Positions 7,621 through 53,505 of a stretch of DNA of 64,000 nt are shown here, piece after piece. The notes under the pieces were generated by a model. It was not told the origin of the DNA and did no database searches. It saw only the letters and a list, made by a program, of their open reading frames with translations. The position numbers and the translations under genes were made by a program. This DNA comes from Ardenticatenaceae bacterium (GTDB taxonomy: Bacteria > Chloroflexota > Anaerolineae > Promineifilales > Promineifilaceae), in contig JACKBN010000020.1 of assembly GCA_020634565.1 (NCBI GenBank), positions 885 to 64,884 of the forward strand, written 5' to 3'. The stretch's first letter is position 1. Each line of letters begins with the position of its first letter.

Positions 7621-10289
7621 TGCGTACTGTTCTGCCAACGATAGATGGTAACAGAGCCGTTCTGGTAGGCAACTTCGAGCTGCTCGTTGAACTTGCTGGC
7701 ACCGGGCAAACGGCCGTTCACGCCGTAAGTATCCCGCTCCAGCCCACCAACGTAAATGTAAGCCACATCATAGGCATCGAGCACATTGGCAATGTTGTTG
7801 TTGTCCCAGTTGGGCAGCGTGTAAATTTCTCGCACAATGGGATCGCGCTCGGAAGGTTCAGGCGTGCTGTAGCCGCGCCACTGGTATTCATGCCCGGCCC
7901 AACCTAGCAGGGTGGGAATGCCAGTGCTAGCCGAGATACGGCCGTACGCCGAATATTGACCGCCCACTGCCTCAACAATTGTGGGTGTGCCATCTACATT
8001 GTCACGCAGCCACATGATTGCCGCGTACTCATCTGGGTTGAAACTGGCTGTCTGTGCCAAGCCATTTAGCGTAGGTGGTTGCCGATTGACGGAGTCAACC
8101 GGCCCGCGAAACTCGATAGCACGAGTTTGGACGGCAAGAATAGGAAAAAGCAAGGTTCCTATGAAAACGGCCGTATACACCACGGTCACGCCCGCAGGTA
8201 CCAACTTGTGACCGCTTTCTCGCGCCACTAGCCACAAGTAAGAGAGACTAAATAACCCCGCAACGCCAAACATCACCCACGTCTGGTAATAGAATTTAAA
8301 AACTGTGTTTAGCCGCACGCCAAAATTATCGCGCAAATAGACAAACTCTGGCCCAAGAGTGAGCAGAGCGCCAGTAGCGATGAGGAGGAGGATAAATGGG
8401 AGCGGCGAGGGGCTGACCTTTGCCGCAACCGGCACGCTGATTGGTTCTACCGCTTCCTCAGCGAAATTGTCCGCATCTTCCGGCTGGGTTTCTGTTGCGG
8501 TAGCTTCGTCTTCTGCCCCAAATAGTCCTTGCCAGGCCATCACGACCAGCCCCAGCAAAGCTGCCAGCATGAGCGTGACGCCGGGGATGGCCACTTTGGC
8601 CTGCACAATGGCGGGAAGAATGGCAAATACGGCCGTAGCACCCCAGCCAAACGCCACATTTCCTTCTGGACGGGGTGCCAGAGTGAGACCCAGTTCATTA
8701 GCCAAGCCTACAATTCTGCCTGCCCCGTCGGCGCTGCTGGCAACAATTAGCCCCAGCAGCACCGCCAGCACAAACAAACCAAGAATGAGCGAAACGGCCG
8801 TTATCACCCCCGCCTTCCACTGCTTAAACTTGTAGCGACTGACCAAACTCAACACCAATGTCCAAATACTCAGCAGCGGTAGACCAAAAATAATCAAAAA
8901 TTGCGGCAGACGTGTGGGGCGTACCAGCGTAGGCAGCAAATAAGGCGCGCCCGCCTGCGAGCGAAAGCCCAAATAAAATGGCAGGTAAAGAAAAATCGCG
9001 GGAATAACCAGCAAAATGGCCAGCCATATCGCCTCGGTAAGCCACTGGTTGCGCCAGCCAAAGCGTCGCCAGCGGTTCAGTATAAACGCCCCCAGCACCA
9101 CAAATAGATGAACCAGCACATCCCACGTGTTGAGGAAGGACAATCCGCCCAGAATCAGCACGGTAATTGCCCAAAGCGGCTTGTTTGGTACAAGAGATTG
9201 GAGATTAGAGATTATAGATTGATTGCTAGCCTTAATCTCCAATCTGAGGTCTCCGGTCTCCTTTTCTTGTAGCCACCACAAGAACGCCACCGCCAGACTC
9301 AAAAAGGCAAATGGCAGTGCCATGACATGGGGGTGCATATCGCCCAAAATAAAGCTAAAGCCGGGAAATTCTGCAATGGGTTCTAGCCCCTCGATCACTT
9401 GGCCAGACAAGGAATATTCATTAATGACGCGGGAACTGCGCCACCACCATAAATATCGTGGACTTTCTATATCAACTGCTGGTCCATTAATGTTGCGTAC
9501 GTCGAGCCATGCCCAAAATTCGGTGGAACCTATGCCATTCCCGTGTAACGTTTCCAGGATGACCTGTAGGTTTCCCGCTATAGGTAAAGCAATCGCCGCC
9601 ATCAGTCCCAAAGTCAGCGCCAGACGAGACGCGGCCTGTTTGAGGTGTTGCCCGTAACTGAGCACAAGATTATAAACAAGCCCAAATGCACCCACGCCCG
9701 TACCTGCAAGTAGCCAGGCAATGCCTAAATTAAAGGCAACTGGTTCAGAAACGGCCGCTAATCGAGCCAGCACCGAGGTCATCACATAACCAAAATAGTA
9801 GTAGCTAATGGCATAGCCAGAGAGCCATGGATCGACCGGAGGGAAGACTGGGCTGCGGCTGGCTGCGTTGAGAAAAGCAAACTCCATTGGTTTTTCGGTT
9901 CCGACGATGGCCGGGTTTTGAGCGCGCACCCAAACCCACAGGCCAAACAGCACCGCAAAAATCAGCTCGGTGAGCAGAATGTGCCGCCAACTGTCGCTGA
10001 GCCAGGTGCGCAGTTCGGTGCCTGTGTGGCGATATGCCCAGTAAGAAAGGCCCACCACCAGCGCCACCGCCAGCAAAATTCCGCCCAGATTATTTTGCAA
10101 AAAGCCCAGGCTGCCCAGCATCCAGAAAAGGTAGCTCACCAGCAGCAGCGACAGCATCTTGACAAACGCATAGCCGCGATCAGGCAGCTTTTTGAAGAGG
10201 GTGAAGGCCAGGGGGGTAACGGCCGTTCCCAACAGCAACAGCACAGCCCACCATCGAATCGCCGCAAAAATGTCTTCCCAAGCTAGCAT
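7617..10289 (-). CDS. DUF2298 / TIGR03662 'Chlor_Arch_YYY' membrane protein (copy 1)
   Basis: 890 aa and strongly hydrophobic. The signature reads VDPWLSGYAISYYYFGYV (YYYxG motif). Confidence 0.75.
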   Translation of the reverse strand: MLAWEDIFAAIRWWAVLLLLGTAVTPLAFTLFKKLPDRGYAFVKMLSLLLVSYLFWMLGSLGFLQNNLGGILLAVALVVGLSYWAYRHTGTELRTWLSDSWRHILLTELIFAVLFGLWVWVRAQNPAIVGTEKPMEFAFLNAASRSPVFPPVDPWLSGYAISYYYFGYVMTSVLARLAAVSEPVAFNLGIAWLLAGTGVGAFGLVYNLVLSYGQHLKQAASRLALTLGLMAAIALPIAGNLQVILETLHGNGIGSTEFWAWLDVRNINGPAVDIESPRYLWWWRSSRVINEYSLSGQVIEGLEPIAEFPGFSFILGDMHPHVMALPFAFLSLAVAFLWWLQEKETGDLRLEIKASNQSIISNLQSLVPNKPLWAITVLILGGLSFLNTWDVLVHLFVVLGAFILNRWRRFGWRNQWLTEAIWLAILLVIPAIFLYLPFYLGFRSQAGAPYLLPTLVRPTRLPQFLIIFGLPLLSIWTLVLSLVSRYKFKQWKAGVITAVSLILGLFVLAVLLGLIVASSADGAGRIVGLANELGLTLAPRPEGNVAFGWGATAVFAILPAIVQAKVAIPGVTLMLAALLGLVVMAWQGLFGAEDEATATETQPEDADNFAEEAVEPISVPVAAKVSPSPLPFILLLIATGALLTLGPEFVYLRDNFGVRLNTVFKFYYQTWVMFGVAGLFSLSYLWLVARESGHKLVPAGVTVVYTAVFIGTLLFPILAVQTRAIEFRGPVDSVNRQPPTLNGLAQTASFNPDEYAAIMWLRDNVDGTPTIVEAVGGQYSAYGRISASTGIPTLLGWAGHEYQWRGYSTPEPSERDPIVREIYTLPNWDNNNIANVLDAYDVAYIYVGGLERDTYGVNGRLPGASKFNEQLEVAYQNGSVTIYRWQNSTQ
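9194..9262. repeat. Family A heptamer (GGAGATT/AATCTCC) inverted block inside the YYY-1 coding sequence
   Basis: A 13-bp perfect inverted repeat pairs 9195-9207 with 9233-9245, flanked by further GAGATT/TCTCC units. It is translated as EIKASNQSIISNLQSL. Confidence 0.85.
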
Positions 10290-10297
10290 AGAATTAC

Positions 10298-13200
10298 CTA
10301 ATTACTCAACGAAATCGCACTGCCATCCAAAACTTTATAAATACTTGTCCCAGCGTTGCGATAAACTTCCTCTAAAACGCCCATTTCAACCATCTGGTCA
10401 AACTTGTTCAATCCGGCGGGTGTGTACAGCACCCACTCCAACTGGCCAACGTAGATGTAGCTCACGTCATACTTGGCCAGGATGTTTTGCGCTTCTGGCA
10501 CGTTGGTGCTGTTGTACAGCGTAGCCACATCCCGCAGCCGCTGGTCGATAAACTGGCCGGGCAAAATGGCCCGCTGCTGCCGCTGATGGCCACTCCAGCC
10601 AATGATGCCGGGCAGGCCCGTGTACATCGCTACGCGGTTGGTGATGGAGCGATAGTAGTTGTCGCTGTACCCCTCGGCCACCACGGGTGAGCCAGGGATG
10701 TTTTGCTGCATCCACTTCAATGCTTCGTAATCGAAGGAGAGCGGTACGTTACCCCCGCCAGCCGCTCCCTGGCTTTCAAAATAGTTGGCGTAAGGCATGA
10801 AGGCCATACCGTCTAGCGTCACGGGCGCTTCCTGGCTGAGGCGCACTTCCCACTTGGCCTTGGTGGCCAAAATTGGGTAGAGGGCCGCGGCAGCAACGAG
10901 GACACCCAGCACTGCCAGCCACGTTTTGCGTCTGATCTCTTTCTTTTGGATAGAAGGCCAGGCCCAAACGGCCGTTACGCCCCCCACCACGCTTAAAATC
11001 AGCCACACCTGCATGTAAAACTTGAAGACGGTGTTCATGCGCCCGACCGTGTTTTCCACCACAAAAAACTCGACAAACAGGGTGATGGCCAACGCCGAGG
11101 CGATCAAAATGAGCACGATGCGGCGGGCGGTGGGCAAATTGGGCTGCAAACCAAGCAGTCCGGCTATCACCGTGAGCGTTAGCACAACGGGAGCAATCCA
11201 ATAACCCATGCGGAACAAAATCAGCAGCAGGATGATGTACAGGCCCAGCGCCAGGAGCATTGGCGCTGCCGCCGGTTCCCATTGCCGCAAACCATCTTGC
11301 GTCCAGCTTTTGGTCCAGGCGCGAAACTCTCGGGCCAAATGGGTCAGAACGAAAAACAGGAACAGGCCGTAGATGACCAGATAATTTCCCAAATAGCTGG
11401 TTGACCCGTCCCAAGGGGCAAGTGAGTTGAAACCAGCGCCGAAGTTGCTGCTAAACGGCCAAAAGAGCAAGAAGGCCAGGCCGATGAGTACGGCCGTTTT
11501 CAGCCCAATCTGGCCCAAAAGTTGCAGGTTAAAGGTACGGCCGTTCTCCTCAATCACCGCATAAACCACCGCCAACACGCCAATCACGGCGTAGGTCGGC
11601 AAATCCCAAATGTTGGTCGCTTGCAGCACGCCAATGGCCAGCGCCCCCACAAACCAGATGAGCGCCGTTTCCCACCAGGCTGTACCTACAGCATCCGATT
11701 TGTTTTTGGCTTTTAGCGCCAGCGAAATGGCCCAGGCCAGCGCCAGCATTGTCAGCGGCAGGGCAATCATGTGGGCGTGCAAATCGCCGTAGAGGAAGGT
11801 GAAGAAAGGAAATTCAGTGATGGGGCCAGCTTCGCCTTCGTTAAAGTTAAGGGCACGGGAGGCGAGAAAGAACCAGTCGCCGGGATAAATCGGCGCGGGT
11901 GTGCCGCTCAGCACTTTGAAACCGCCGTCCAGGGTGCGAACAGCCGTTCCCACCAGCGGAATGTTCTCTTCCAGCGTCGGATTGCCCGCCTTGTACCACG
12001 CATCGGTTAGCACCCCCACCTCCGCCAGGTTGCCCAGGAGGATGGCCAGGGTGATGGCGATCAAGCCAGCGTAAATACTTGTTCTTTGACCTGGAGACAG
12101 GGTGATAAGGTGACGGGGTGACGGTTCATTCACCTTGTCACCTTGTCTCCGGGTCACCTTGTCACTAGAAGACACTAAATCATACGCTATGGAGAACACC
12201 GCCATGCCCGTAAAGCTGAACAGCATGGACAAATTCAGGTTGTAGGCAATGGTCGGGACGATGCCTAAAATTTTGGTTAGCACGCCAGCATAGACGAAGC
12301 CGTAGTAGTAGTAATTGATGTAGCCGCCCGCAAACCAGGGATCGTAAGGAGGGAAGCTGGTGGATTTGAGAACGGCCGTAAAATAAGTCAGGTCCATCGG
12401 TTTTTCGCCGCCCCAGATCACGTCCCAGACGTCCGGGTTGCGCACGCGGATGAGGATGGCAATCAGGTACAGCGCCACCGCAATGAGTTCCACCACGCCA
12501 ATAAACGCCAGATTCTCCCGCACCCAGGTGCGAATTTCGCCACCGCGCCGGATGAGCACCAGCCCGCTCAAAATCACGATGATCAGCAGGGCCAGCAGGT
12601 GCGTGCCGCGCGAATTTTGGAACAGCTGCATGCTGGCCGTCAGCCAGACAAAGTAAGAGATCAGCAAAATGGAGAGAATGCGCGAGATGATGTAGCCTCG
12701 GCTGGGCAGCCAGCGGAAGATGGCAAAGGTGAGCGGAAACGTAAGCAGGCCCAACGCAATAACCGCCAGCCACCAAACGGCCGCTGCCAGCCCCGAATTC
12801 TGCGATAGTGCGCCATCCGGGTTAAAGATGTTGCTAAAGGTGCCATTGGCCCGCTGGGTTGCCGCGGCGGTTTCCGACAGCATCAGCCCATTCACCGCTT
12901 CTGTCGCCTGGCCGGGATTCATAAACACCGCCTGGCTCAAATCCACTTCGCCCAAAATAGTGGCCGTGTTTTCCCGACTGTACGCCTCGGTTTTGGCAAA
13001 AATCCAGACCGGCGGATGGTCGTAGACGCTAAACGCTTCTTCAGCAGCCAGATCGCCCGGCGGCGGCCAGCCAATCTCTGGCATTTCACCCCAGCCTACT
13101 TGCCCGGTGGTGTCGCTGATGTACAGCGGCCCGATTTGCAGCGGCGCGTGAAATTCAGCCACCAAGTCAAAACCCAGCTCGCCGTTGAACAGCGCTTCGT

Positions 13201-13741
13201 AGTAGCGGGTGGTCATAGGGTAGGTGAGCGGCAGGCGGGGCAGCGACCAGATGGCGCGCTGGCTGCTCAACACCACGTAATCGGCTTCGTCGAGCCAGGC
13301 TACCATCTCTTCCCGCTTTTCCGGGCCGTCGGGATTGGTGATGGGGCGCTGTCCGCCAGTGATTTCGGTGAAATGTGAACCGTAGGCAGAACGGCCGTCT
13401 ACGTCAAACGGTAAAATGCCGTCCCAATGCTCATTCATGAGCAAGCTGGTTTGGGCGCGCACGGTTGTGTTCCCGGCAGTGAGTTCCAGCATGAGTTGTT
13501 GCGGCGTGTTGGCGGGAACGGCCGTATCTGCCAAATCTAGCAGGTAGCTTGCTTCCTCTTCCGTCACCACCAGATCAGTGGTTTCGCTGGAGCCGTTGAT
13601 CAGACCCGCCCGTATGCTAATCTCCTGGCTTTGCCCGGTGCGCAGCCCTGCTGGATCGCTGGGGATGAACAGTTTATTGAGGCGAACGGCCGTTAGCGTA
13701 CCGTCTTCAGGCAATGCCGTCAGCAAAAGAGGGGTTGCCAC
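10298..13741 (-). CDS. DUF2298 / TIGR03662 'Chlor_Arch_YYY' membrane protein (copy 2) with an N-terminal ~330-aa soluble domain
   Basis: 1147 aa. The signature reads [19 protein letters not shown]. The GTG start is taken from the ORF track and no ATG lies nearby. The gene is in the same frame as the upstream frameshifted gene but separated from it by TGA and TAG. Confidence 0.7.
12093..12165. repeat. Family C octamer (CAAGGTGA/TCACCTTG) inverted block inside the YYY-2 coding sequence
   Basis: 12093-12113 pairs with 12130-12150 at 19 of 21 positions, and an extra TCACCTTGTCAC unit follows. It is translated as [26 protein letters not shown]. Confidence 0.85.
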
Positions 13742-13762
13742 CTACTTGAAAATCGTACCCTT

Positions 13763-15366
13763 TCAGGGCAGCGTCAGCTCTTTGGTTTCGCCGTTGGCTT
13801 CATAAATGAGGGTTGCGCCCGTGGGAATATTCTCAAACATCCACTTGGAGGCAGCAATGCGGGTAACCGGCTCCCGGTAAATCTGCACGAAGGCATTGGC
13901 CCACAAAAAGCTGGGAATCACAACCAGGGCAATCAGGCCAGCGGCCAGGGCTTGTTTCAGTGCGCGCCGCTGCTCGCTCTGCCGCGCGCGCTGCCAGATG
14001 GCCCACAGCGCCCAGCCACCCAGCAAAAAGAGGGTGGGTAAATCGGCAAAAAGTAGCGGATTGATTTGACCCAGCGGGTAGCCATGAACAAAAAGTAGAG
14101 CAGGCTCCAGCTAACGGGGATGGCGTGGGCCAGCCAATCGGGCCAGGCGCGCACGATGCGCCACAGCGCCCAAAACAGTCCCGCCCAGGCAGTCAATCCA
14201 GCGGCGATGCCCATGCCATACAGCACCATGTTGGTAAACGGGAAAACAATGGCATCGCGATCGGTCCATTGCAGCGCGGGTGGAAGGAAGCTTCCGGCTT
14301 TGCTGCTGCTGGATTTCATCCATGTTGCTGCGCCACTGCGGGTTGAAGCCCATGAGGGAACGCAGCCAGACCGAGAGTGTGCCCGGTTCCTCACCCGTTT
14401 GGGTGATGATTTCATTGCGGGCAATGGTGGCATCGGCGAAGGCGTATGGCTGGGCCAGGCGGAACACCACCAGCGAGACGGTGGCGGCGACCAATACGCC
14501 CAAAAAGACGCGCTGAAAATTGAGCGCGCCAATGCTGGTATGGCGGATGCTTTGCCAGGTGTGCCCCGGCGTACCAGCCAGGCCACGGCCGAAATGTTGA
14601 TGATCACCGCCAGCGGCGCGACGTTGATGCGGGAAGCCACCGCCAAGCCTAAACTGAGGCCAAACAAAAGCCACCAGTGGATTTGCCACTTCGCTTTGTC
14701 ATCGCCAAATCCTGCGGCGCGTACGGCTGTATACACGCCCAACGCCGTAAAAAAGGCAGCCCAATTGTCCATTGTGAAAAAGTGGGATTGTTGAATGGCC
14801 ATAACGGCCGTTCCCTGAAAAAATGCCGCCAGTAAGCCCGCCTGCCAACTATACAGTCGGCGGCCAATCAGATAGGTGAGCAAAACAGTGAACAAATCAA
14901 CGAGGGCTGAGAGGAAACGGCCGCTTTGCTGCAGGCCATAAAAGCTGTTGTAGGTTTGGGCGCACAGGTCCGGGAAGTTGTTGCAGGCGGAAGCGGCCCA
15001 TTCGGCAAAGTAGCGCGTAAACGTCATGGGGAAGTTGCCGTAGACGTAGAATCCCTTGTCCACATTGTACGGATTCAGCGGCGACTCGGAGGTGCGCATG
15101 TATTCAAAGAAGCTGTCGGCTGGCTGCAAACGGCTGGCGACGTCCATCAGGAAAAATTCGTCGGGGTGTAAGAAGTTGCCTTCGCCCCACGTTAGTCCGG
15201 TGAAGCGAAAATAAGCCGCCATGGCCAGGATGAGTAGCAAAATGAGGACGCTGAGTGATTCCCAGGAAAGGCGTTGTTTGGTTTCTGCTGGAGATTCTAT
15301 TGTTTCAGGAACGGCCGTTTCGGTTTCCAGTTCCTGCTTCTCTTCTGCCACAGTGGTCATAAGCAA
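13763..15366 (-). pseudogene. GT39-like (phospholipid-carrier-dependent glycosyltransferase-like) membrane protein gene interrupted by three frameshifts
   Basis: Plausible protein sequence switches between ORFs. ORF 13957..15366 reads well from 15366 to ~14575 (FLHPDEFFL, YGNFPM motifs). ORF 14111..14689 takes over from ~14575 to ~14290 (HTWQSIRHTSIGALNF...NMDEIQQQQ). The first frame resumes from ~14290 to ~14035 (ALQWTDRDAIVFPFTNMVLYGMG...RYFLPIYP). ORF 13763..14026 covers the rest (LLGGWALWAIWQR...). Each switch lies at a short homopolymer run. Confidence 0.6.
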
Positions 15367-16754: not shown

Positions 16755-16830
16755 CAGTAATGGGTAAGCCAGTAATCAGTGAGCCGATTTAACGCATACG
16801 GAACACGGTTACCGATTCACTGGTTACTGG
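16755..16830. repeat. Family B (GTAATCAGTGA-type) hairpin element in the phosphoesterase/crp spacer
   Basis: CCAGTAATCAGTGA (16769-16782) pairs with TCACTGGTTACTGG (16817-16830) at 13 of 14 positions. Confidence 0.75.
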
Positions 16831-24763: not shown

Positions 24764-24765
24764 AA

Positions 24766-24836
24766 TCAGGTAATCGGTTATCGGTGAACGGTAATCGGTG
24801 TTTTTACGGATAACTGATAACCGATTACCGTTTACG
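24766..24836. repeat. Family B heptamer (CGGTAAT/ATTACCG) hairpin element in the selA upstream spacer
   Basis: A 14-bp perfect inverted repeat pairs 24769-24782 with 24816-24829, plus flanking heptamer units. Confidence 0.85.
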
Positions 24837-25963: not shown

Positions 25964-26021
25964 CATCTTAAGCGAAAAAGCCCTTGCCAATAACCGCTCT
26001 CGAACATATGATCCAAAATGC

Positions 26022-42540: not shown

Positions 42541-42640
42541 TGTAATTTGGTAATTGAGTAATTGGGTAATTCACCCCTTCACCCGTTCACCTTGTCACCA
42601 AGCGTTCGAAGAACGCAGTCACCCCTTCACCTTGTCAAAA
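42541..42640. repeat. Family C octamer tract (plus GTAATTG heptamers) in the regulator/ABC permease spacer
   Basis: The tract reads GGTAATTGAGTAATTGGGTAATT, then TCACCCCT TCACCCGT TCACCTTG TCACCA. The small palindrome GCGTTCGAAGAACGC follows, then GTCACCCCTTCACCTTGTCA. Confidence 0.75.
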
Positions 42641-43866: not shown

Positions 43867-43886
43867 GATTTCCTCTAAAAATTAGT

Positions 43887-43944
43887 CACAGATTTCGCAG
43901 ATTACACAGATTTTTGATACAAAATTGAATCTGCGAAATCTGTG
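43887..43944. repeat. Family D hairpin element between the ABC permease and ATPase genes
   Basis: A 17-bp perfect inverted repeat pairs CACAGATTTCGCAGATT (43887-43903) with AATCTGCGAAATCTGTG (43928-43944). Confidence 0.9.
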
Positions 43945-44702: not shown

Positions 44703-46322
44703 TTAATTTCCGCTGAACGGACCATTACCGGGCGTAAACAAATCATCCACGGGAACGGCCGTTTCAATCAACAGTTCATCTCCAGCGGTTAAGCCGCTGG
44801 TAATTTGCGTATATTCATCATCGCGCAGGCCGATGGTCACTTCAATCACCTCGCCGTCGGCGCGGGTCACATAAAATTTGTCAGCGGCGCGATCCTGAGT
44901 GATGGCGCGGTTGGGCACCAGCAGCACGTCGCTGCGCTGGGCGGTGATCAGGTTCGCATTGGCCGTCATGCCGACGCGGATGGGCAGGTTGGTGTCGCCC
45001 AGCGCCAGGTAAACGGCGTAGGTAACCAGCCCGCTGCCCTGGGAAGCCGTGTTGCGTGGCGCAATCGAAACCACCGTGGCCTCAATTTCTTCGTCCGGCC
45101 AGGTTTCCAGGGTGATGACGGCCTGTTGGTCCAGAATGATGTTGCTGATGTCTACCTCGTCCACATCCAGCACCAGCTCCAGGCTGTCGGGATTAAACAT
45201 CTCGACCACCACGCCGCTGGCCTGCTCGCCGATGCTGACGTTTACGGCCGTAATCACCCCGGCATATGGCGCGGTCAACGTGGCGTTGGCCAGATTTTGC
45301 TCGGCGCGGGCCAGATTGGTTTGCGCCTGGATGAGTTGCGCCTCAGCAATGGCAATTTGCTCGTCGGAGGCGCCGCGCACCAGCCGATCCAGCGTGGCTT
45401 CCGCTGAGGCCAGCGTCGCTTCGGCCTGGGCAATTTGCACGTCGGAGGCGCCTTCTTGCACCTGTTGTAGACGCAGTTCGGCCGTTTTCAGTGAAGCTGA
45501 GGCCAGACTCACCGATGCCTGGGCAGCGGCAATCGAGTTTGGATCGCCGTTGAGCAGTTCGTTCAGCGTTTCCTGGGCGGCTTGTAGTTCGGCGTTGGCT
45601 TGCAAAGCGGCCGTTCGTGCCGCTAGTTCCATGTTCGCCAGCTGATCTTCAGAGATGTAGTCGTTTTCCGTTACCAAAACGGTGCTGTGCTGCTCGGCGG
45701 CTTGCGTAGCGGCCGTTTGGGCCAGTTCCAGCTGAATTTGGGCGGCGGCGATCGCTTCGGCATCGGCTGCGGCTCTCAAGTCAGACAGGCGAGCGTAGGC
45801 GGCGTTAAGTTCTGCCTGAGCCGCCTGGACATCGGCTTCGGCAGCAGCGATGTCGTTGGCATTGGGGCCGTCCAGTAAATCAGCCAGATTGGCTTCGGCG
45901 CTGGCGACGCTGGCTTCGGCGGCGGCCAAATCAGCCTCGGTGGCGGGTTCTTGCAGCGTGTCCAGGTTGGTTTCCTGAATGATGACGGCTTGGGTAGCAT
46001 TGGCGACATCGCGTTCGAGAGCGGCCGTTTCCAGCTGCAAAAGTGGTTGTCCGGCGGTGACGGAATCACCCACCGCCACGTAGATTTCCGCTACCGTGCC
46101 GCCGCGCAGCAGCGCGAGAGCGGCCGTTTGCTCGGCCTCAATGTTGCCGCTGGCGGTGGCGCTGGCTGATAAATCGCCGATGAAAGCGGTGACGATGTCA
46201 CCGGTTTGCGGCTCCTGTGCGGCGGCGCTGCGCTGTCCCTGCTGCACAAAAAACAGGGCGGTGATGAGCGCTAATGTGCCAATGCCAATTAAAAACCATC
46301 TGCTTCGTAGTAACTTTTTCAT
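44703..46322 (-). CDS. HlyD-family periplasmic adaptor subunit (copy 2)
   Basis: I prefer the start MKKLLRSRWFLIGIG at ATG 46322. The protein has a signal-anchor, a long Ala/Gln/Glu-rich coiled coil and a C-terminal beta-barrel (GMTANANLITAQRSDVLLVPNRAI). Confidence 0.85.
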   Translation of the reverse strand: MKKLLRSRWFLIGIGTLALITALFFVQQGQRSAAAQEPQTGDIVTAFIGDLSASATASGNIEAEQTAALALLRGGTVAEIYVAVGDSVTAGQPLLQLETAALERDVANATQAVIIQETNLDTLQEPATEADLAAAEASVASAEANLADLLDGPNANDIAAAEADVQAAQAELNAAYARLSDLRAAADAEAIAAAQIQLELAQTAATQAAEQHSTVLVTENDYISEDQLANMELAARTAALQANAELQAAQETLNELLNGDPNSIAAAQASVSLASASLKTAELRLQQVQEGASDVQIAQAEATLASAEATLDRLVRGASDEQIAIAEAQLIQAQTNLARAEQNLANATLTAPYAGVITAVNVSIGEQASGVVVEMFNPDSLELVLDVDEVDISNIILDQQAVITLETWPDEEIEATVVSIAPRNTASQGSGLVTYAVYLALGDTNLPIRVGMTANANLITAQRSDVLLVPNRAITQDRAADKFYVTRADGEVIEVTIGLRDDEYTQITSGLTAGDELLIETAVPVDDLFTPGNGPFSGN

Positions 46323-46335
46323 GAGATTATTCCTT

Positions 46336-47883
46336 TTACCCGCCAAACGGTCCTGGTCGGTTGAATTCTTCAGTTGGCTGGCTGCTGACGAGGCGCAAGA
46401 CGTCGCCTTCGACCAGGCCAGCGGTAATTTGCGTGTTTTCGCCGTCGCGCAGGCCAATCGACACTTCCACCTGGCGGAAGCTGCCGTCCGACTGCTGTAC
46501 ATCGACAAAATATTTGCCTGCGGCGCGGTCGGGCGTGATGGCGGCGTTGGGCACCAGCAGCACGTCTTCGCGTTGGGCTGTAATCAGGTTGGCGTTGGCC
46601 GTCAGGCCGATGAGCGTGGGCAGGTCGTCGGCCTGGTAAGCCAGGTGCACCTCGTAGGTGACCAGCGCGCTGTTTTGGTTGCTGGCGCTGGGGGCGATGG
46701 TCACGATTTCGCTGTCGAATTCGCGCTCCGGCCACGCTTCCAGCGTCACAATGGCGGGCTGACCGACGTCGAAGCTGCCAATGTCTACCTCATCCACACT
46801 CAGGACCAGCTCCAGGCTGCTGCTGTCTACCAGCTCCACCACGGGGCCGCTGGCAATTTCACCTTCGCTGACGTAAACGGCCGTTACTACCCCGGCAAAT
46901 GGGGCCACAATCGAGGCGTCGGCCAACGCTTCTTGCGCCTCAGCCAGCGTCAGTTCCGCTTGGGCGACTTCTGCTTCGGCAGCACGGATTTCTTCGGTAG
47001 TGGGGCCAGCCTGTAAATTGGACAAATTGGCCTGGGCTTGAGCAACGGCCGCTTCTGCATTGGCGATATTGGCGGCTGTGGCACCGGCCAGCGTGCTGTC
47101 CAGATCGATCTGGCTGCCAGCGACGCGGGCATTGGCGGCAGCGACGCTGCTTTGCGCGGCGTTGGTGCTGGGGCCAGCTTGCAGCGTATCCAGCTGCGCT
47201 TGAGCGTTGGCTACGGCTTGTTCAGCTTGCAGCCGCGCCTGGTGATTGGCCTCATTCGGGTTGTCTTCGTTGATTTCGATGGCGCGATCCAGCTGCTGCT
47301 GTGCGGCCAGCAAGTTTGCTTCGGCGGCGGTAATTTGGGATTGGCTAATGCTGCTCTGGCTGTTGTTCAAATCGGCAACGGAGGCATTGAGTTGGGCCTG
47401 AGCGGAGGCAACGGCCGTTTCGCCAAGTGCGATTTCTGTTTCTGTGGGGCCAGCTAACAGATTGTCTAGCTGAGTTTGGGCGCTGGCCAGGGCGGCCTGG
47501 GCGCTGGCAATTTCGGCGTCGGTGGCTGGAGCTAGCAAATTATCCAGACGGGCCTGAGCCAGCACCACCGTTTGGGCGGCGTTGTCTACAGTAAATTGCA
47601 AATCGGTGCTGTCTAGCTGGACCAGCAGATCGCCGGGCTGGACGACATCGCCCAGCCGCACGGCCACGGTGGTGACGCGAGCGGGGCTGCTGGCAGTGAG
47701 TACCGCCTCGCGCTGGGGCAGTACCTGCCCGCTGGCCGTGGCGCTGGCTGATAGATCGCCGATGGTGGCAACGGCCGTTTCTGTCTCTGGCGCGGCGCTG
47801 GAATTGGTGGCGGTGCAGCTAATCAGCAGCGCGGCCAAAATGGTGAAGACTGTGCCCAGGGCCAGCCATCTTTTTTTGTTCAT
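46336..47883 (-). CDS. HlyD-family periplasmic adaptor subunit (copy 1, lipobox-like LISC)
   Basis: I prefer the start MNKKRWLALGTVFTILAALLISCTA at ATG 47883. It is a paralogue of the downstream gene (GLTANANLITAQREDVLLVPNAAI). Confidence 0.85.
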   Translation of the reverse strand: MNKKRWLALGTVFTILAALLISCTATNSSAAPETETAVATIGDLSASATASGQVLPQREAVLTASSPARVTTVAVRLGDVVQPGDLLVQLDSTDLQFTVDNAAQTVVLAQARLDNLLAPATDAEIASAQAALASAQTQLDNLLAGPTETEIALGETAVASAQAQLNASVADLNNSQSSISQSQITAAEANLLAAQQQLDRAIEINEDNPNEANHQARLQAEQAVANAQAQLDTLQAGPSTNAAQSSVAAANARVAGSQIDLDSTLAGATAANIANAEAAVAQAQANLSNLQAGPTTEEIRAAEAEVAQAELTLAEAQEALADASIVAPFAGVVTAVYVSEGEIASGPVVELVDSSSLELVLSVDEVDIGSFDVGQPAIVTLEAWPEREFDSEIVTIAPSASNQNSALVTYEVHLAYQADDLPTLIGLTANANLITAQREDVLLVPNAAITPDRAAGKYFVDVQQSDGSFRQVEVSIGLRDGENTQITAGLVEGDVLRLVSSQPTEEFNRPGPFGG

Positions 47884-48187
47884 CGTGATGCTCCTCAAGA
47901 TTTCGTTGAGACCGGACAGGTTTACTGCGTTGGCTGCTGGAGAAGATATTTTGCTCGGCAAAGTTTCTGAAGTGAGACGTTGCTTTGTAAACCTGTCGGG
48001 TCTTGTAAATTTCGTATGATGAACAGTTTAGCGGGCGAATCTGGAGAAGTTATGGAGAAGTGTGGTAGATAGTTTGCAAATGATGCCGGTTGGGCGACAG
48101 CGTGAGAAGGGCAGCAACTGCCGGTCGCCGTTTGGGGGAAACGGCCGTAACCAATTCATGGTTTTCAAGTGCTCGGAGGTCACCAAT

Positions 48188-49427: not shown

Positions 49428-50891
49428 CTACGCCAAATCTTCTAACACCAATTCAGCCGCCACCTTGCCGGAGAGTGTGACCATCGGGACGCCGCCGCCA
49501 GGGTGGGTGGTGCCCCCGGCAAAATAAAGCCCTGCAATTTGGTTGGAGCGGTTGTGCGGCCGTTTAAAAGCAGCCCAACGTGAATTTGGGGACGCGCCAT
49601 ACAGCGCTCCCTGCCACGCGCCGCTGCCTGCGGCCAAATCGTGCGGCGTCAAAATCTGCTCGGTAACGATGTGATCTCGCACGTCAAAGCCAAAGTTAGC
49701 AATTTTTTGCAGGATGAGATCGCGGTAATTTTGTTGGTTCGTGTGCCAATCGAAACGGCCGTCTAGCGGCGGCGCGTTGACCAGCACAAACCAGTTTTCG
49801 CCACCCTCCGGCGCGTGCTCTGGGTCGGTTTTGCTGGTGATGGCGATGTAGATGGTGGGATCATCTGGCGGTTGGCCTTGCGCAAAGATGGCCTCAAATT
49901 CGGCCGGGTAATCCGGCGAGAAGAGTATGTTGTGGTGCGCCAGTTCGGGAAACTGCTTGTTGATGCCCAGCAGGAGGATGAAGCCGGAGCAAGATGGGTC
50001 GAATTGTGAATTGTGAATGGTGGATTGTGAATTTTTAAGTAAGTGTTTTTGGGTGGTGGTGACGTCGAGGTTGCTGACGACGGCCGTTCCCTTTACTTTT
50101 TCCCCGTTTTCCAGGATGAGGTGGGAGAAACGGCCGTTAACCACCCCGATTTCCTGCACGCCGCAGTTGGTATGAATCGTCACGCCCAGTTCCTTGGCCA
50201 GCCTGGCCATCGCCTGGGCAATGGCGTAGATGCCGCCGCGCGGGTACCAGACGCCGCCGTTCAGCTCCACGTGGGCGATGACGTTGAGTGTGGCCGGGGC
50301 CAGGTATGGGCTGCCGCCGACGTAGGTGGCAAAGCGGCCCAAAAGCTGCCGCAGCTCTGGCGATTGCACATGATTTTCAATCGCCTGCTGCATCGTGCGC
50401 AGGCCGTCAATCTTGAACCAGTCTGGGAAGGGCACGCGCAGAAAACTGCGCCAGGTAGGTGGTCGGTCGTAGATGAAGACGGGGCCGGTGATGCGGTGAA
50501 TTTGCTCAGCGTAGCGCAAATACTTCTCATAGCCAGCCACATCTTCTGCGGCGATTTTGCGGATTTGCGTGGCCATCGCTTCCGGGTTTTCCTTGGCGTC
50601 GAGGACGGTGCCGTTAGGGTAAAAGTATCGTGTCAGCGGATCGACGGGTTCGAGCGTGAGGTAATCTTCTAGGCGGCGTCCGGCGCTGGTGAATAGCTCC
50701 TCAAACACGTGCCGCATGGTGATTACCGACGGGCCAATATCCCAGCGGAAGCCGTCGGCCTCGATTTGGCCCATCTTGCCACCCACTTGTGGGTTCTTTT
50801 CGTAAATCGTGACGCGCTGCCCGGCGGCCGCCAGCCGGATGGCTGTGCTCAGTCCGCCGATGCCTGCGCCGATGATGAGGATTTCGTTCAT
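49428..50891 (-). CDS. Phytoene-desaturase-family oxidoreductase (CrtD-like carotenoid 3',4'-desaturase candidate)
   Basis: 487 aa. The FAD motif reads ILIIGAGIGGLSTAIRLAAAGQRVTIYEKNPQVGGK. The C-terminal CrtI-family motif reads GLYFAGGTTHPGGGVPMV. It is the last gene of the carotenoid cluster. Confidence 0.7.
   Translation of the reverse strand: MNEILIIGAGIGGLSTAIRLAAAGQRVTIYEKNPQVGGKMGQIEADGFRWDIGPSVITMRHVFEELFTSAGRRLEDYLTLEPVDPLTRYFYPNGTVLDAKENPEAMATQIRKIAAEDVAGYEKYLRYAEQIHRITGPVFIYDRPPTWRSFLRVPFPDWFKIDGLRTMQQAIENHVQSPELRQLLGRFATYVGGSPYLAPATLNVIAHVELNGGVWYPRGGIYAIAQAMARLAKELGVTIHTNCGVQEIGVVNGRFSHLILENGEKVKGTAVVSNLDVTTTQKHLLKNSQSTIHNSQFDPSCSGFILLLGINKQFPELAHHNILFSPDYPAEFEAIFAQGQPPDDPTIYIAITSKTDPEHAPEGGENWFVLVNAPPLDGRFDWHTNQQNYRDLILQKIANFGFDVRDHIVTEQILTPHDLAAGSGAWQGALYGASPNSRWAAFKRPHNRSNQIAGLYFAGGTTHPGGGVPMVTLSGKVAAELVLEDLA
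50001..50036. repeat. Family E heptamer tandem (GAATTGT x5, imperfect) inside the CrtD-like coding sequence
   Basis: GAATTGT GAATTGT GAATGGT GGATTGT GAATTTT is translated on the minus strand as KNSQSTIHNSQF. Confidence 0.8.
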
Positions 50892-50901
50892 AGGTAATTG
50901 G

Positions 50902-50968
50902 GGAGATTGGAGACTGGAGATTGGAGATTAAAAAGTCTCCAGTTTCTAATCTCCAATCTCCAATCTCC
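50902..50968. repeat. Family A heptamer hairpin at the GT2 / CrtD-like junction
   Basis: A 15-bp perfect inverted repeat pairs 50916-50930 with 50947-50961. A nested GGAGACT/AGTCTCC pair is also present. The right arm encodes the last residues (LEIGD) and the stop of the GT2 ORF. Confidence 0.9.
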
Positions 50969-52058
50969 TGCCTTTCCACTCTGCCGTGCCGTGCCGCTGC
51001 CACTGAATTGATTGGAAGGCGATGCGGGTCATCATCAGGACGGAGATGGGCATGAGCAGGGCATCAAGGGGGCGTTGGTGGGTGAAAACGGCCGTTCCGC
51101 CCCGCAACACCACGCCAGCCAATCCCAAACCCAACGGCCACACATCCAAAGTGGTGGCAAACCAGAGCCAGGGAAACAGAAAAATGATCCAGTGAAATAC
51201 GGTCGAGAGCAGCAAAAAAGGGATGCTGTTGCCGTGCCCGGCCAGAATATTTTTGGCAAAGCCCGCCCGTACTTCTGGCCAATTTTGGTACATGCGGCAG
51301 CTTACCAGCCGGTTGCCATCGGCCATGCGCAGCCGCAATTTGTGCGCTTTGATAGCTTTGGCCAGGGCTACATCCTCGATGACGTTGTTGTGAACGGCCG
51401 TATGCCCCCCCACTTTTTCATACGCCTCGCGCCGGAACAGCAAGCATTGCCCGTTGGCAGCGGCGAAGGCGGGCAGATTTGTGTAATGCACCGGCAGGAT
51501 AGGCAGATAACACAAAATGGCAAAGCTCATGAGGGGCACAACGAGTCGTTCTGGCCAGGTTTCTGTTTGCTGCGTGGGCCAGACGGTGAGCAGGTCGGCC
51601 TGCTCGGTTTGGGCCAGGGCCAGCAGCGCCGCCAGCGCGTTAGGTGCCCAGCGCACGTCCGCATCTGCGAAGAGCAAGTACTCCCCGGTGGCGGCCTGGC
51701 TGAGCTGGTGACAGGCCCAATTTTTGCCCAACCAGCCGGGTGGCAGCGGCGTGCCAGACAGCAACCGGAAGCGGGCGTCGCCATTAGCGGCTTGGGTGGC
51801 GATGGCTCCGGTGCCGTCGTCGGACTGGTCGTCGAGGAGGATGAGTTCAAAGTTGGTGACCGTTTGCGCCAATAAAGCCCGAATCGTTTGGCCGATAACG
51901 ACCGCTTCGTTACGCGCTGGTATCAAAATAGAGAGTTTGGGCTGCTGCGCCAGTTGGGTTGCCTTGAGGCGGGGGAAGAAGAGGAAGTTGGAAACGGCCG
52001 TTATCCCCAAAATCAGCAGTGCGAATGAAGTGAATCCCCCGAGTATCGTTAAAATCAT
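50946..52058 (-). CDS. Family 2 glycosyltransferase (candidate carotenoid glycosyltransferase, CruC-like role)
   Basis: Motifs are LSILIPARNEAVVIGQTI, the ILLDDQSDDGT DxD region and FADADV. I prefer the start MILTILGG at ATG 52058, which forms an ATGA overlap with the upstream plsY-like stop. Confidence 0.7.
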   Translation of the reverse strand: MILTILGGFTSFALLILGITAVSNFLFFPRLKATQLAQQPKLSILIPARNEAVVIGQTIRALLAQTVTNFELILLDDQSDDGTGAIATQAANGDARFRLLSGTPLPPGWLGKNWACHQLSQAATGEYLLFADADVRWAPNALAALLALAQTEQADLLTVWPTQQTETWPERLVVPLMSFAILCYLPILPVHYTNLPAFAAANGQCLLFRREAYEKVGGHTAVHNNVIEDVALAKAIKAHKLRLRMADGNRLVSCRMYQNWPEVRAGFAKNILAGHGNSIPFLLLSTVFHWIIFLFPWLWFATTLDVWPLGLGLAGVVLRGGTAVFTHQRPLDALLMPISVLMMTRIAFQSIQWQRHGTAEWKGRRLEIGD

Positions 52059-52657
52059 GGGTTTGTTTTTTTGCGGCGACGAGACGGCCGTTTTCCCAAA
52101 TCCGCCCGGTGATTGTACGCCAGTAACCCCATCTGCACCGCCCACACGCCCAGTAAAACTGGGTCATCGAACCAGACGAGCAGCGCGATGAGCATGCCCA
52201 CCATTGTCAGCATCACCGCCCAGCCGGACGGCGTGATGAGCAGCGTAAACAGAATCAGCAGCGAGAGTGAAATGGGCGGCATTGTCCAAATGGTGATGCC
52301 GATCCAGACGCCAAATGCGGAGGCAATCGCTTTGCCCCCGCGCCAGTTGAGAAAAGGTGAAAAAGTGTGTCCTAAGGGTGGGGCCAACGAAATTGGAATG
52401 AGCGGCCAGCCTTCCACGCCAAAAATGTGTACTGCCAATCCCAGCGGCAGCGCCCCCTTCGCGATATCCAACATGAGCGCCAAAATGAAAGGCGGCATCC
52501 CGCCCGCGCGTAGCACGTTGGTCGCCCCAGGATTTTTGTCGCCGAATTGGCGAATATCTTTGCCCAGCATTAATTTGCCCACCCAAACAGAAAACGGCAG
52601 CGCGCCGAGCGTAAAACCGAAGAGGGTCCAGAGGAGGGTGGGGAGGAGTTGGTTCAT
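52055..52657 (-). CDS. plsY: PlsY-family acyl-phosphate acyltransferase
   Basis: 200 aa. GALPFSVWVGKLMLGKDIRQFGDKNPGATNVLRAGG and RGGKAIASAFG match PlsY (PF02660). Confidence 0.75.
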   Translation of the reverse strand: MNQLLPTLLWTLFGFTLGALPFSVWVGKLMLGKDIRQFGDKNPGATNVLRAGGMPPFILALMLDIAKGALPLGLAVHIFGVEGWPLIPISLAPPLGHTFSPFLNWRGGKAIASAFGVWIGITIWTMPPISLSLLILFTLLITPSGWAVMLTMVGMLIALLVWFDDPVLLGVWAVQMGLLAYNHRADLGKRPSRRRKKTNP

Positions 52658-52695
52658 AAGAAAGTGTGCAAGTGAGCAAGTGAACTGATTACCGA

Positions 52696-53505
52696 TTACT
52701 GCTTACTGAATACCGAGCGCCAGCCTAGCCAAACAAATAAACCCATCACCGTGCCGCCGACGAGGGCGGGGCCGACCAGACCCCAGAAGAAGAGCAGGCC
52801 GAATGTTTCCAGAAACCAGGTGATGGTGTAGATGATCAGCAGCGGGCGGGCGGGTAGATTTTGCGGTCGGATGAGGGCGGTGAGCAGTACGGCCGTTCCT
52901 AACCATCCCACATAATTGACCCAGGGAATACCAAAATAGCCGCTGGGTTCATGCCAGACCCACAATCCCCAACTAACCATTTGCGGATCGAGAAACAAAT
53001 CCCAGGCGGTGAAGGCTAGTCCGGCCAGCAGCAGGTACAGCCAGCGATTGTTGGCCCATCTGCCGGGCAGCTGCGCTTGCATGAGACGGGCCACGACCCA
53101 GGCGGCGGGCAGCATCATGAACCAGGCGAAGGGAATAAGTACTGGCACGTGGGCAATTTGCGGCTGCATCAAATCGGTGTAGCTGTAGCTGCCGAAGGGG
53201 AAGCCGGTGGTGGAGCCGAGCCATTCTACAAACAGGGTCAGTGCAGCGATGAGTACGGCCGTTCCCATCGTTTTGGGCCAGCCCCAGGAATCACGCACCA
53301 TTAGGAAAACGGCCGTTGCTTGCAGCAACACGCCCAACGTCAGCCCCAGCGGAATGATTTCCGGCCCCCAAATCCACTTCATGATGGGCAGGCTGATCAT
53401 GGCCAGCACCCAGAGGGCGATGAGGGTGGTGGTTAGAGATGGGGAGCCGGTAATCAGTGATCGGTAATCAGTAATCAGTTGCGGTTGGACTCGTTTGCTT
53501 TCCAC
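52696..53505 (-). CDS. cruF: Carotenoid biosynthesis protein, PF04240/CruF-like (carotenoid 1,2-hydratase candidate)
   Basis: 269-aa membrane protein. LFVEWLGSTTGFPFGSYSYTD, FTAWDLFLDPQMV and GIPWVNYVGW resemble the CruF family. The N-terminus is uncertain because codons ~9-20 are a heptamer repeat block. An alternative ATG lies at 53400. Confidence 0.65.
   Translation of the reverse strand: MESKRVQPQLITDYRSLITGSPSLTTTLIALWVLAMISLPIMKWIWGPEIIPLGLTLGVLLQATAVFLMVRDSWGWPKTMGTAVLIAALTLFVEWLGSTTGFPFGSYSYTDLMQPQIAHVPVLIPFAWFMMLPAAWVVARLMQAQLPGRWANNRWLYLLLAGLAFTAWDLFLDPQMVSWGLWVWHEPSGYFGIPWVNYVGWLGTAVLLTALIRPQNLPARPLLIIYTITWFLETFGLLFFWGLVGPALVGGTVMGLFVWLGWRSVFSKQ
53447..53480. repeat. Family B heptamer tandem at the 5' end of the cruF-like ORF
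   Basis: CCGGTAATCAGTGATCGGTAATCAGTAATCAGTT is translated as QLITDYRSLITG if the ORF-track start is used. Confidence 0.8.

Follow-up and report, generated by a model that had tools for sequence, protein, structure and literature searches.

How can repeated hairpin sequences lie in frame inside conserved protein-coding genes? The question is raised by a 64,000-nucleotide stretch (the window; contig JACKBN010000020.1 of assembly GCA_020634565.1, positions 885 to 64,884) from an Ardenticatenaceae metagenome-assembled genome (MAG) of the phylum Chloroflexota. The window has a G+C content of ~55%, almost all of its genes are on the minus strand, packed into operon-like runs, and its nearest loci come from Ardenticatenaceae MAGs and from Candidatus Leptofilum, a filamentous Chloroflexota genus known from activated sludge (PMC10746286). 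Its CrtD-like protein and its YYY-2 ORF match NCBI proteins of an Ardenticatenaceae MAG (P0001 and P0241) at 100% identity. A cyanobacterial host, to which cruF, the heptamers, and a HIP-like palindrome might point, was rejected on the protein matches and the titles of the matching loci. A first-pass annotation reported repeat elements in frame within two DUF2298 genes (YYY-1 and YYY-2), a CrtD-like desaturase gene and a cruF-like gene, as well as repeat-supplied ends of a GT2 glycosyltransferase gene and an ABC-2/GldG gene. The observation is real: the repeats occur far beyond chance, and all repeat-coded segments fall in variable loops or terminal tails. We consider it probable that dispersed repeats resembling REP, STRR, and TAACTGA elements arise widely, survive only in permissive sites as stop-free, multiple-of-three variants, and turn over fast.

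Repeat-coded loops and tails in conserved proteins

Arrays were counted with Tandem Repeats Finder (TRF; period 7–10, at least 2.5 copies), with 20 dinucleotide-preserving shuffles as the control. The window holds 28 arrays vs. 0–3 per shuffle, an enrichment of ~25 times. All translations quoted in the first-pass annotation are found exactly and in place in the open reading frame (ORF) translations, and the repeat-derived segments are indeed in frame inside conserved genes: the two DUF2298 genes, the desaturase, GT2, and CruF. Pfam supports the gene identities (two DUF2298, an Amino_oxidase desaturase, GT2, Caroten_synth for CruF, and an ABC-2/GldG-type fusion). In the following, L-numbers denote loci of relatives and P-numbers orthologue proteins that were compared with the window. 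The genes and repeats concerned are:

7617–10289, minus strand: YYY-1, a DUF2298 membrane protein of 890 aa (Pfam PF10060, E 3e-110; syntenic orthologues 74–85% identical)
9187–9262, minus strand: family A hairpin in YYY-1, (GGAGAYY)n-loop-(AATCTCC-like)n, read as ...ETGDLRLEIKASNQSIISNLQSL..., residues ~343–367; TRF array at 9193–9220
10298–13741, minus strand: YYY-2 ORF, covering the C-terminal two-thirds of a PMT_2+DUF2298 gene (~1,700 aa in relatives); it contains the family C hairpin
12087–12165, minus strand: family C hairpin in YYY-2, (CAAGGTGA)n-loop-(TCACCTTG)n; inverted repeat I3, arms 12087–12121 and 12130–12164
13742–15366, minus strand: N-terminal part of YYY-2 with the PMT_2 domain; its protein alignment with L019 leaves the frame and returns
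49428–50891, minus strand: CrtD-like carotenoid desaturase, 487 aa (Pfam Amino_oxidase)
50001–50036, minus strand: single-arm heptamer array in CrtD, ATTCACA on the coding strand (TRF, 4.7 copies), read as NSQSTIHNSQFD
50902–50968, unstranded: family A intergenic hairpin between GT2 and CrtD; inverted repeats I5, I8, and I9; –43.2 kcal/mol, z –8.9
50946–52145, minus strand: GT2 glycosyltransferase ORF, ending ...RRLEIGD*; the L001 orthologue has 368 aa
52696–53505, minus strand: cruF-like gene (Caroten_synth), both ends repeat-coded
53447–53480, minus strand: ATTACYG array (family B, stop-free orientation) in cruF, codons ~10–20; TRF array at 53448–53479
53497–53521, minus strand: AGTGAAA/AATAAAA units holding the stop of the lycopene-cyclase-domain gene (53509–53511) and the cruF GTG; likewise in L003, L005, L006, and L009
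61006–61033, unstranded: TCACCTTG x3.5 array, family C, single arm (TRF)
61030–63120, minus strand: ABC-2 permease/GldG-like fusion gene; its TGA stop (61030–61032) is the start of the fourth TCACCTTG unit

The first-pass term "hairpin elements" fits the copies in YYY-1 (–23.2 kcal/mol, z –3.5) and YYY-2 (–38.1 kcal/mol, z –5.3), but not those in CrtD (0 kcal/mol) and at the cruF N-terminus, which are one-armed arrays.

In YYY-1, the family A element lies between the conserved LPFAFLSL...LWWL helix and PLW...GGLSFLNTWD. The protein model, of modest confidence (pLDDT 66), renders the segment as a low-confidence linker between predicted transmembrane (TM) helices 320–340 and 370–386, with pLDDT below 50 at residues 344–354. 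Family A is present in all 25 YYY-1 loops of the Leptofilum clade, where it reads EIGDWRLE...QSLISNLQSL. Among ~120 orthologues, the loop holds at least six different repeat families or none: other lineages carry CGCAAAGG with AAATCTGTG (FNAKAQRR...SAESVKSVDS), an ATTCACA array read NSQFTIHNSQFTI, a TCACCTTG array read SPRHLVTLSP, or GAGEQ.../...APLL, EQYSVNS, and others. By a strict test, 60 of 104 orthologues have no loop repeat, and many repeat-free orthologues have a common W..W..R..L..IG.PLW motif. A metagenome scan returned mostly distant DUF2298 genes (35–56% identity); those 35–41% identical carry SLISNLQSPFSNLQ-type arrays in the loop, showing that repeats occupy the same DUF2298 loop in further lineages. 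The likeness of ...SNLQSLVPNK in the window to LASLQSLVHEIG in the repeat-free P0185 was set aside as chance or convergence, and the L022 DNA has no heptamer there. The hairpins of L105, L106, and L107 contain a 24-nt insert, CCTTCGRCTACRCTCAGGACAARC (peptide PSxTLRTS; ~10270–10300).

The median anchor-to-anchor length of the YYY-1 loop is 49 aa with repeats vs. 50 aa without. Repeat-coded 5-mers in 120 orthologues are confined to four clusters (residues 80–99, 210–229, 340–369, and 590–629), which are the least conserved bins of the protein, and the rate of repeat-coded peptide is 3.5% in the loop vs. 0.13% elsewhere.

The AlphaFold model of CrtD (pLDDT 84.6) matches the gamma-carotene desaturase structure PDB 4rep with a TM-score of 0.92. 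Its residues 285–303 form a coil between helix 277–284 and strand 304–310, with pLDDT below 50 at 289–295. The structural check put forward with the first-pass annotation therefore places the segment in low-confidence coil or loop in both of the modelled proteins, CrtD and YYY-1. Exact-sequence look-ups of the window CrtD and of P0004 returned no match. Thirty CrtD orthologues align gap-free apart from the repeat site, where distant orthologues have 11–14 unrelated residues. The site contains (ATTCACA)n alone in the window, L002, L003, and L010, additional (CGCAAAGG)3 units read FNAKAQRRRG in L004–L006, and yet another block, of ~60 nt, in L001 and L007–L009, so that relatives have zero, one, or two repeat blocks beyond the heptamer array. 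All of these versions are in frame, and the unit itself varies (ATTCACC in L006; ATTAACA/ATTTACC in L005 and L009). The sequence alignment with 4rep passes the repeat segment gap-free, so that in the window the array substitutes for native loop without lengthening it. In YYY-1 and in the CrtD of the window, the repeats would appear to overwrite native loop sequence rather than add to it.

Full-length YYY-2 orthologues have 1,663–1,714 aa (PMT_2+DUF2298), and orthology was established via synteny. Loop 1, where the window carries its family C hairpin, was compared among syntenic orthologues at least 78% identical: family C is also found in P0243, P0244, P0246, P0247, P0256, and L023, family A in P0245/L019, P0251, P0252, P0253/L104, and P0255, and a GC-rich CCCCTCCC...GGGAGAGGGCTGGGGTGAGGG hairpin in P0242/L107, P0249/L106, P0250, and P0254/L105. 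P0242 is the closest relative of the window (86% identity), yet has a different loop 1 family. In P0249, the GC-rich element is flanked by family-A-like remnants (AWRR...ITALNQKAI), which suggests turnover in which one element inserts into another already present and deletion follows. Loop 1 is shorter in the repeat-free L022, and among 115 orthologues those with repeats have a region longer by ~7 aa.

Loop 2 of YYY-2 has 12 residues and no element in the window, L023, L106, and L107; in L019 and L105, a family A hairpin of 87 nt takes the place of ~7 native codons. With vs. without the repeat, the region measures 73.5 vs. 53 aa (~+20 aa, in relatives only). Comparison of filled and empty loop 2 showed no target-site duplication, a weak test at one site and 15–20% divergence. 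Loop 2 of L019 and L105 and loop 1 of L104 share a composite family A variant with a nested GCARCCNNAGGYTGC mini-hairpin; its presence in two different loops argues that whole elements may be copied. The 15-nt mini-hairpin (peptide SRSRRLPIS) lies in family A 3' arms at L019:4559–4573, L105:7734–7748, and L104:7239–7253.

Alignment with orthologues, the check envisaged by the first-pass annotation for its insertions, thus gave a divided answer: YYY-2 shows a net gain (~+7 aa in loop 1 and, in relatives only, ~+20 aa in loop 2), but the YYY-1 and window CrtD segments are not net insertions. The segments are nonetheless lineage-specific and polymorphic among close relatives, as loop 2 of YYY-2 illustrates, being empty in the window and filled by family A in L019 and L105.

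The first-pass statement that no repeat introduces a stop or frameshift holds for the repeats themselves, but the YYY-2 gene is broken upstream by 1–2-nt deletions relative to L019 at ~14567, 14289, 14039, 13767, and 13733, all at short G/C runs and none in repeats. A DnaE-like polymerase is split into overlapping ORFs (25911–27500 and 27415–29121). The split YYY-2 and DnaE-like genes likely reflect assembly indel errors, although they also suggest possible pseudogenes. Two HlyD-family ORFs (44703–46508 and 46336–47961) overlap by ~170 nt and may represent another frameshift or a mis-set start.

Repeats also code for protein ends. As the first-pass annotation had it, family B units form early cruF codons, reading LITDYRSLITG at codons 10–20; GTG 53503–53505 is the sole canonical in-frame start upstream of cruF TM helix 1, and the ATTACYG array therefore codes cruF residues ~10–20. 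Close relatives have LPITDYRLLIT and similar N-termini, L007 and L008 a different tail, and the distant L011 an unrelated tail of similar length. The cruF C-terminus, SVFSKQ*, is built from CAGTAAG/CGGTAAT units in all clade members. The GT2 end likewise comes from a repeat: the hairpin at 50902–50968 ends 10 nt before the CrtD ATG, and its positions 50946–50968 give RLEIGD and the TAG stop of GT2. Conservation of GT2 stops at ...WKGR, and is followed by RLE(I/T/A)GD* (family A) or, in relatives, by a ~30-aa tail of the GC-rich family; GT2 translation probably starts further downstream than the listed GTG. The GC-rich CCCCTCCC...GGGAGAGGGCTGGGGTGAGGG sequence encodes ...PLPxxGRE...SPSQGEGWGEG... 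and forms the GT2 C-terminal tail in L006, L007, and L008; it is absent from the GT2 and YYY-2 loop 1 sites of the window. At the ABC-2/GldG gene, the stop codon does lie in a TCACCTTG unit, but the repeat supplies the stop only and no residues, and an overlap by the stop codon alone could be a coincidence. C-termini and stops are supplied by repeats in GT2 (RLEIGD*), cruF (FSKQ*), a 507-aa desaturase (VSVR*), and the lycopene-cyclase-domain gene (SEK*); the last three had escaped the first-pass annotation. The same arrangement is found in most or all clade members for these four carotenoid-cluster genes.

How the repeats remain open in frame follows in part from their period. Because 3 x 7 nt make 21 nt, a heptamer array gives the same 7-aa periodic peptide in three frames, so that on a given strand either every frame is open or none is. 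GGAGATT arrays are free of stops in all six frames, and this family is found as full hairpins in genes. The CGGTAAT and TGTGAAT arms contain TAA and TGA; coding sequence has only the opposite arms, without their partners (ATTACCG in cruF and ATTCACA in CrtD). Three perfect CAAGGTGA units place a TGA in every frame; the intergenic copy at 61006–61033 is perfect, and in coding copies of family C, two units are followed by TGG, CGGAGA, or a 7-nt unit, which breaks the array. In every orthologue examined, the repeat segments are stop-free and a multiple of three in length. Such stop avoidance is what purifying selection on a translated segment would predict; a segment that is bypassed or excised would have no need of it. 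The first-pass proposal that frame-preserving insertions are tolerated or selected is borne out insofar as the segments are open in variable loops and tails, but their in-frame state is survivorship in intact genes and not itself evidence of positive selection.

Tandem-unit hairpins between genes

Across the window and its relatives, the unit size is 7, 8, or 9 nt and the elements are 35–110 nt long. A wider census of 300 kb of Ardenticatenaceae loci gave 172 arrays, 105 of them of period 7, with AATCGGT (=CGGTAAT), AATCTCC (=GGAGATT), AAAAGTG, AATTCAC, AAGGTGAC, and AAAGGCGC as the commonest units; in the comparison of family membership, GGAGATT, CGGTAAT, AAAAGTG, ATTCACA, and CAAGGTGA dominate. 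Units found inside genes recur between genes, both in the window and in relatives. Copies of the same family have only the 7–8-nt unit in common, with loop, unit number, and flanks all variable. Many units carry a GATT core (GGAGATT, CCGATTA, CAGATTT) or a GTGA core (AAGTGAA, GGTGACA, GGGTGAA, GTGAATT), which hints at two superfamilies or a shared recognition motif.

The usual layout is (unit)n - short loop - (complement)n. Most sets are paired as hairpins (z –3.5 to –9.6); for the intergenic copies, z runs from –4 to –9.6. Of 19 hairpins from the window and L003–L023 that fit a strict definition, 18 have the purine-rich units as their 5' arm, the reverse order being essentially unseen; window examples are 50902–50968, 24763–24835, 12087–12165, and 43886–43944. 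Since the elements are palindromic, this polarity is valid on either strand. About 14 of 18 window elements end no more than 30 nt from a start codon, and the opening units of many supply the last residues and stop of the upstream gene. In the window, three elements sit well within genes; relatives have many more of these. The other repeats of the window, listed without a strand, are:

16755–16833: CAGTAAT-type intergenic hairpin, overlapping the stop of a Crp-like gene; z –4.0
24763–24835: family B intergenic hairpin, 1 nt upstream of the selA start; GATAACT/GATAACC units (TAACTGA-like); z –4.5
25893–25922: (GGACACAGAT)x3 array, overlapping the ATG and first four codons (MDTDK) of the DnaE-like ORF
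42542–42640: intergenic arrays of GTAATTGG and TTCACCCC/GTCACCYY (TRF)
43886–43944: intergenic hairpin CACAGATTT...AAATCTGYG; inverted repeat I16, 17 bp perfect; z –9.6
52662–52716: arrays of AAGTGAGC and GATTACC, lying between the start of the PlsY-like gene and the stop of cruF, whose last 6 codons they overlap
54336–54446: family B hairpin (CGGTAAT...ATTACCG); inverted repeats I1 and I2; –42.2 kcal/mol, z –4.2; 54433–54446 give the last residues VSVR and the stop of the 507-aa desaturase
63146–63165: intergenic CGCAAAGG x2.5, a unit that in relatives codes for FNAKAQRRRG within CrtD and YYY-1

None of the 47 ORFs of the window encodes a transposase, including RAYT or IS200-like TnpA, and an Rfam scan of the whole window returned no family reaching its gathering score. 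A phmmer search with the 33-aa translation of a perfect intergenic family A hairpin, a query that is too short, gave 8 matches; the 6 inspected comprise 4 short ORFs across (GGAGAYT)n arrays and 2 unrelated repeat proteins.

The window contains a second abundant sequence, the octamer palindrome ACGGCCGT, with 134 occurrences in 64 kb vs. 1.2 expected from shuffles (maximum 4), or ~1 per 480 bp. It sits within and between genes and is frequently lengthened to AACGGCCGTT (e.g., 168–175, 42416–42431, and 60668–60675). It resembles the highly iterated palindrome HIP1 of cyanobacteria, here in a Chloroflexota genome. A literature search found no report of such repeats, nor of an iterated palindrome, in Chloroflexota.

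Several of the repeat-bearing genes belong to a compact minus-strand carotenoid cluster (49428–57230) encoding phytoene synthase, a CrtI-like desaturase, a fused lycopene-cyclase-domain protein, CruF, a PlsY-like acyltransferase, GT2, and the CrtD-like desaturase, the order of which is kept in Ca. Leptofilum. The cluster suggests a glycosylated, possibly acylated, hydroxy-carotenoid in a non-phototrophic member of the Chloroflexota.

Origin and persistence of the in-gene repeats

The account that we consider probable runs as follows. The genome contains many dispersed repeat families of tandem 7-, 8-, or 9-nt units, mostly (unit)n-loop-(complement)n hairpins with the purine-rich arm 5', whose normal home would be short operon spacers, abutting the next start codon and often giving the previous gene's stop. 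In-gene copies would arise when whole elements are copied or spread by gene conversion and their units then slip, and would persist only where the protein accepts any sequence, as in the inter-helix loops of DUF2298 proteins, the disordered surface loop of the desaturase, and N- and C-terminal tails. The ribosome would read through them, and purifying selection would retain the stop-free, multiple-of-three versions and trim the loop to near its native length. The elements would have no specific protein function, and other families would take over in short evolutionary time. The data that carry this account are the family membership of the segments, their location in the least conserved loops, their presence/absence and family-swap polymorphism, their avoidance of stops, and their conserved length. 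Translation, mobility, neutrality, and the copying mechanism enter it as steps that we infer.

A number of results weigh against tolerance as the whole explanation. Repeats have been acquired independently at the same loop in many lineages, which could reflect function and not mere tolerance, and the 5' position of the purine-rich arm in 18 of 19 hairpins is unexplained by a purely neutral picture. The YYY-1 hairpin is strongly folded in all eight clade members (z –3.5 to –8.7; in the seven relatives –34 to –50 kcal/mol, z –4 to –8.7) despite a third-position identity of only 58% in the gene. In a codon alignment of these eight members, identities at codon positions 1/2/3 are 0.85/0.92/0.58 for the YYY-1 gene and 0.76/0.79/0.66 for the loop, and amino-acid identity is 0.61 in the loop vs. 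0.83 in the rest of the gene. Near-equal conservation of the three positions suggests nucleotide-level constraint or continual homogenisation, not free decay. The segment thus evolves as a nucleotide element rather than a coding one, and the pattern fits selection on structure, or homogenisation by conversion or recent replacement, alike. Mobility, for its part, has neither a target-site duplication in YYY-2 loop 2 nor a transposase in the window to speak for it, and translation of the segments is predicted from their sequence.

These points bear on the proposal that the coding hairpins are selected as nucleic acid, acting as a translational pause between TM helices, an RNase processing or stabilising site, or an array for a repeat-binding protein, with the peptide incidental. 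The strong folding of all eight YYY-1 orthologues, set beside z +1.5 in the repeat-free L022, speaks for it, as do a loop third-position identity (0.66) above the gene median (0.56) with codon positions about equally conserved, the convergence of unrelated families on the same loops, the strict hairpin polarity (18 of 19), and intergenic copies directly upstream of start codons, placed like TAACTGA repeats with a proposed post-transcriptional role (PMC4679880). We nevertheless regard this as unlikely: 60 of 104 YYY-1 orthologues do without a loop repeat and the window without a YYY-2 loop 2 hairpin, in YYY-1, decay has gone furthest in the window itself (z –3.5), RNAalifold on the eight orthologous YYY-1 hairpins gives compensatory change in only 2 of 21 pairs, and third-position identity is as high as in the loop in 14 of 82 gene windows. 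The elements in CrtD and cruF, moreover, do not fold, and the repeats sit exactly in the least conserved loops, as a tolerance filter predicts. A broader version, possible if rather doubtful, invokes an as yet undescribed process in these Chloroflexota that overwrites any unconstrained DNA with fixed-polarity tandem-unit hairpins and re-homogenises them, for example by hairpin-templated gene conversion or a structure-recognising enzyme, with in-gene hairpins kept for a useful nucleic-acid structure (a pause, processing, or protein-binding site); if true, it would account for the convergent occupation of loops by unrelated families and for near-perfect stems across ~20% protein divergence.

Arrays might instead be immobile, arising by in-place slippage of chance 7–8-nt duplications and by fold-back or template-switch synthesis of the inverted arm, the recurring units being merely slippage-prone sequences. 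Orthologous CrtD arrays do show concerted unit change (ATTCACA, ATTCACC, ATTAACA/ATTTACC) and changes in unit number, heptamers are reported to be the most abundant long simple repeats in many bacteria, with slippage proposed as their source (as summarised in PMC4679880), and neither a target-site duplication nor a transposase was found at the site and in the window examined for them. The idea seems quite unlikely, however, given that the same dozen units occur in orthologues only 35–60% identical and at unrelated loci, that complete ~87-nt hairpins are all-or-none with no seed at the empty site, that an identical composite variant with its nested mini-hairpin lies in two different loops, and that elements are nested (the 24-nt insert in L105–L107, and the GC-rich element between family A remnants in P0249). 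Finally, the in-frame appearance could mislead, with host ORFs that are pseudogenes or assembly artefacts, or with repeats that are bypassed in translation or removed from the mRNA. Assembly indel problems in the window (YYY-2 frameshifted upstream, the DnaE-like gene split) lend this some substance, but the frameshifts lie outside the repeats, and the same elements are in frame in independent MAGs and in complete genomes of other projects. With protein sequence highly conserved on both flanks, every orthologue stop-free and a multiple of three, and coding family C copies that appear to have lost an in-frame TGA, such an explanation is very improbable.

Relation to known repeat systems

The first-pass comparison with Rickettsia palindromic elements (RPE) is a fair description of how the system works, and by analogy RPE would be the closest system in manner of working. 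RPE are ~100–150 bp long, have a whole-element sequence and peptide that are conserved, and are confined to Rickettsia (Ogata et al. 2000, as summarised in PMC10969869). Judged by that summary, both systems comprise dispersed palindromic families, found between genes and in frame in conserved, unrelated genes, with a peptide tolerated by the fold and an element without a transposase. There are also differences: the repeats described here are 35–110 nt long, consist of tandem 7–9-nt units in many families of variable length, belong to Chloroflexota, and take each other's place in a given loop with no increase in its length. RPE as summarised are additions to their host proteins, a description that suits YYY-2 (~+7 and ~+20 aa) but not YYY-1 (49 vs. 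50 aa) or CrtD (no gap vs. 4rep).

TAACTGA heptamers are direct repeats of Beggiatoaceae, cyanobacteria, and Bacteroidetes (MacGregor 2015, PMC4679880), with one dominant unit and all but one of 170 sets in direct orientation (PMC4679880). Like the repeats here, they are tandem heptamers (2–7 copies there) of filamentous hosts, mostly intergenic, a few nt upstream of start codons, and overlapping upstream stops, with the stop-containing orientation only at gene ends and the stop-free one occasionally in ORFs at the protein periphery. Their peptides LITDN-/LSVISYQ have LITD in common with LITDYRSLITG of cruF, and GATAACT/GATAACC at 24809–24830, the sole window units close to TAACTGA, are one-mismatch relatives or rotations of it. 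Here, in contrast, a dozen or more units form mostly fixed-polarity hairpins, and full hairpins lie deep in genes in inter-helix loops. The repeats of the window belong to neither RPE nor TAACTGA: they have no long conserved unit, their units are others, and most are hairpins.

Other comparisons are more distant. REP/BIME and REPIN are single conserved-sequence palindromes that are strictly extragenic and linked to the RAYT transposase (PMC3116915). Short, imperfect, highly repeated palindromes in operon spacers, non-autonomous in both systems, are the point of likeness, whereas here the arms are tandem arrays, copies lie in coding sequence, and no RAYT is found among the window ORFs. Unlike miniature inverted-repeat transposable elements, the repeats show no target-site duplication at the one filled/empty site compared (YYY-2 loop 2), a weak test at 15–20% divergence. 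Borg tandem repeats are fast-evolving, lie between and inside genes, and have genic units divisible by three (PMC9879509). In both systems, genic copies leave the reading frame intact, are found preferentially in membrane or extracellular proteins, and give rise to disordered segments; here, however, the genic units are 7 or 8 nt, the frame is kept per whole element, and units are dispersed genome-wide. The nested 15-nt and 24-nt inserts in family A arms invite comparison, across a difference of phylum and sequence, with the small dispersed repeats of Nostoc, which Elhai et al. reportedly described in 2008 as 21–27 nt long, hairpin-forming, and inserting into other repeats and occasionally genes. 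Cyanobacterial heptamers of the STRR type are said to go back to Mazel et al. in 1990. A literature search found no description of a many-family, tandem-unit, fixed-polarity hairpin architecture in Chloroflexota, nor of the same loops being overwritten time and again at constant length, with one family exchanged for another among close relatives.

Selfish DNA inside genes is a known theme; what is new here is the exchange of repeat families for one another within a given protein loop. The finding ties that theme to the unexplained heptamers of filamentous bacteria, the STRR of cyanobacteria and the TAACTGA repeats of Beggiatoaceae. In this group, repeat-coded peptides and repeat-supplied starts and stops will mislead gene callers and alignments. 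The loops of membrane proteins prove rewritable wholesale at unchanged length, and the orthologue series offers a rare time-lapse in which one loop is empty, filled, refilled by another family, or nested within a genus-level clade, which makes the origin, copying, and fate of the repeats testable by comparative genomics.

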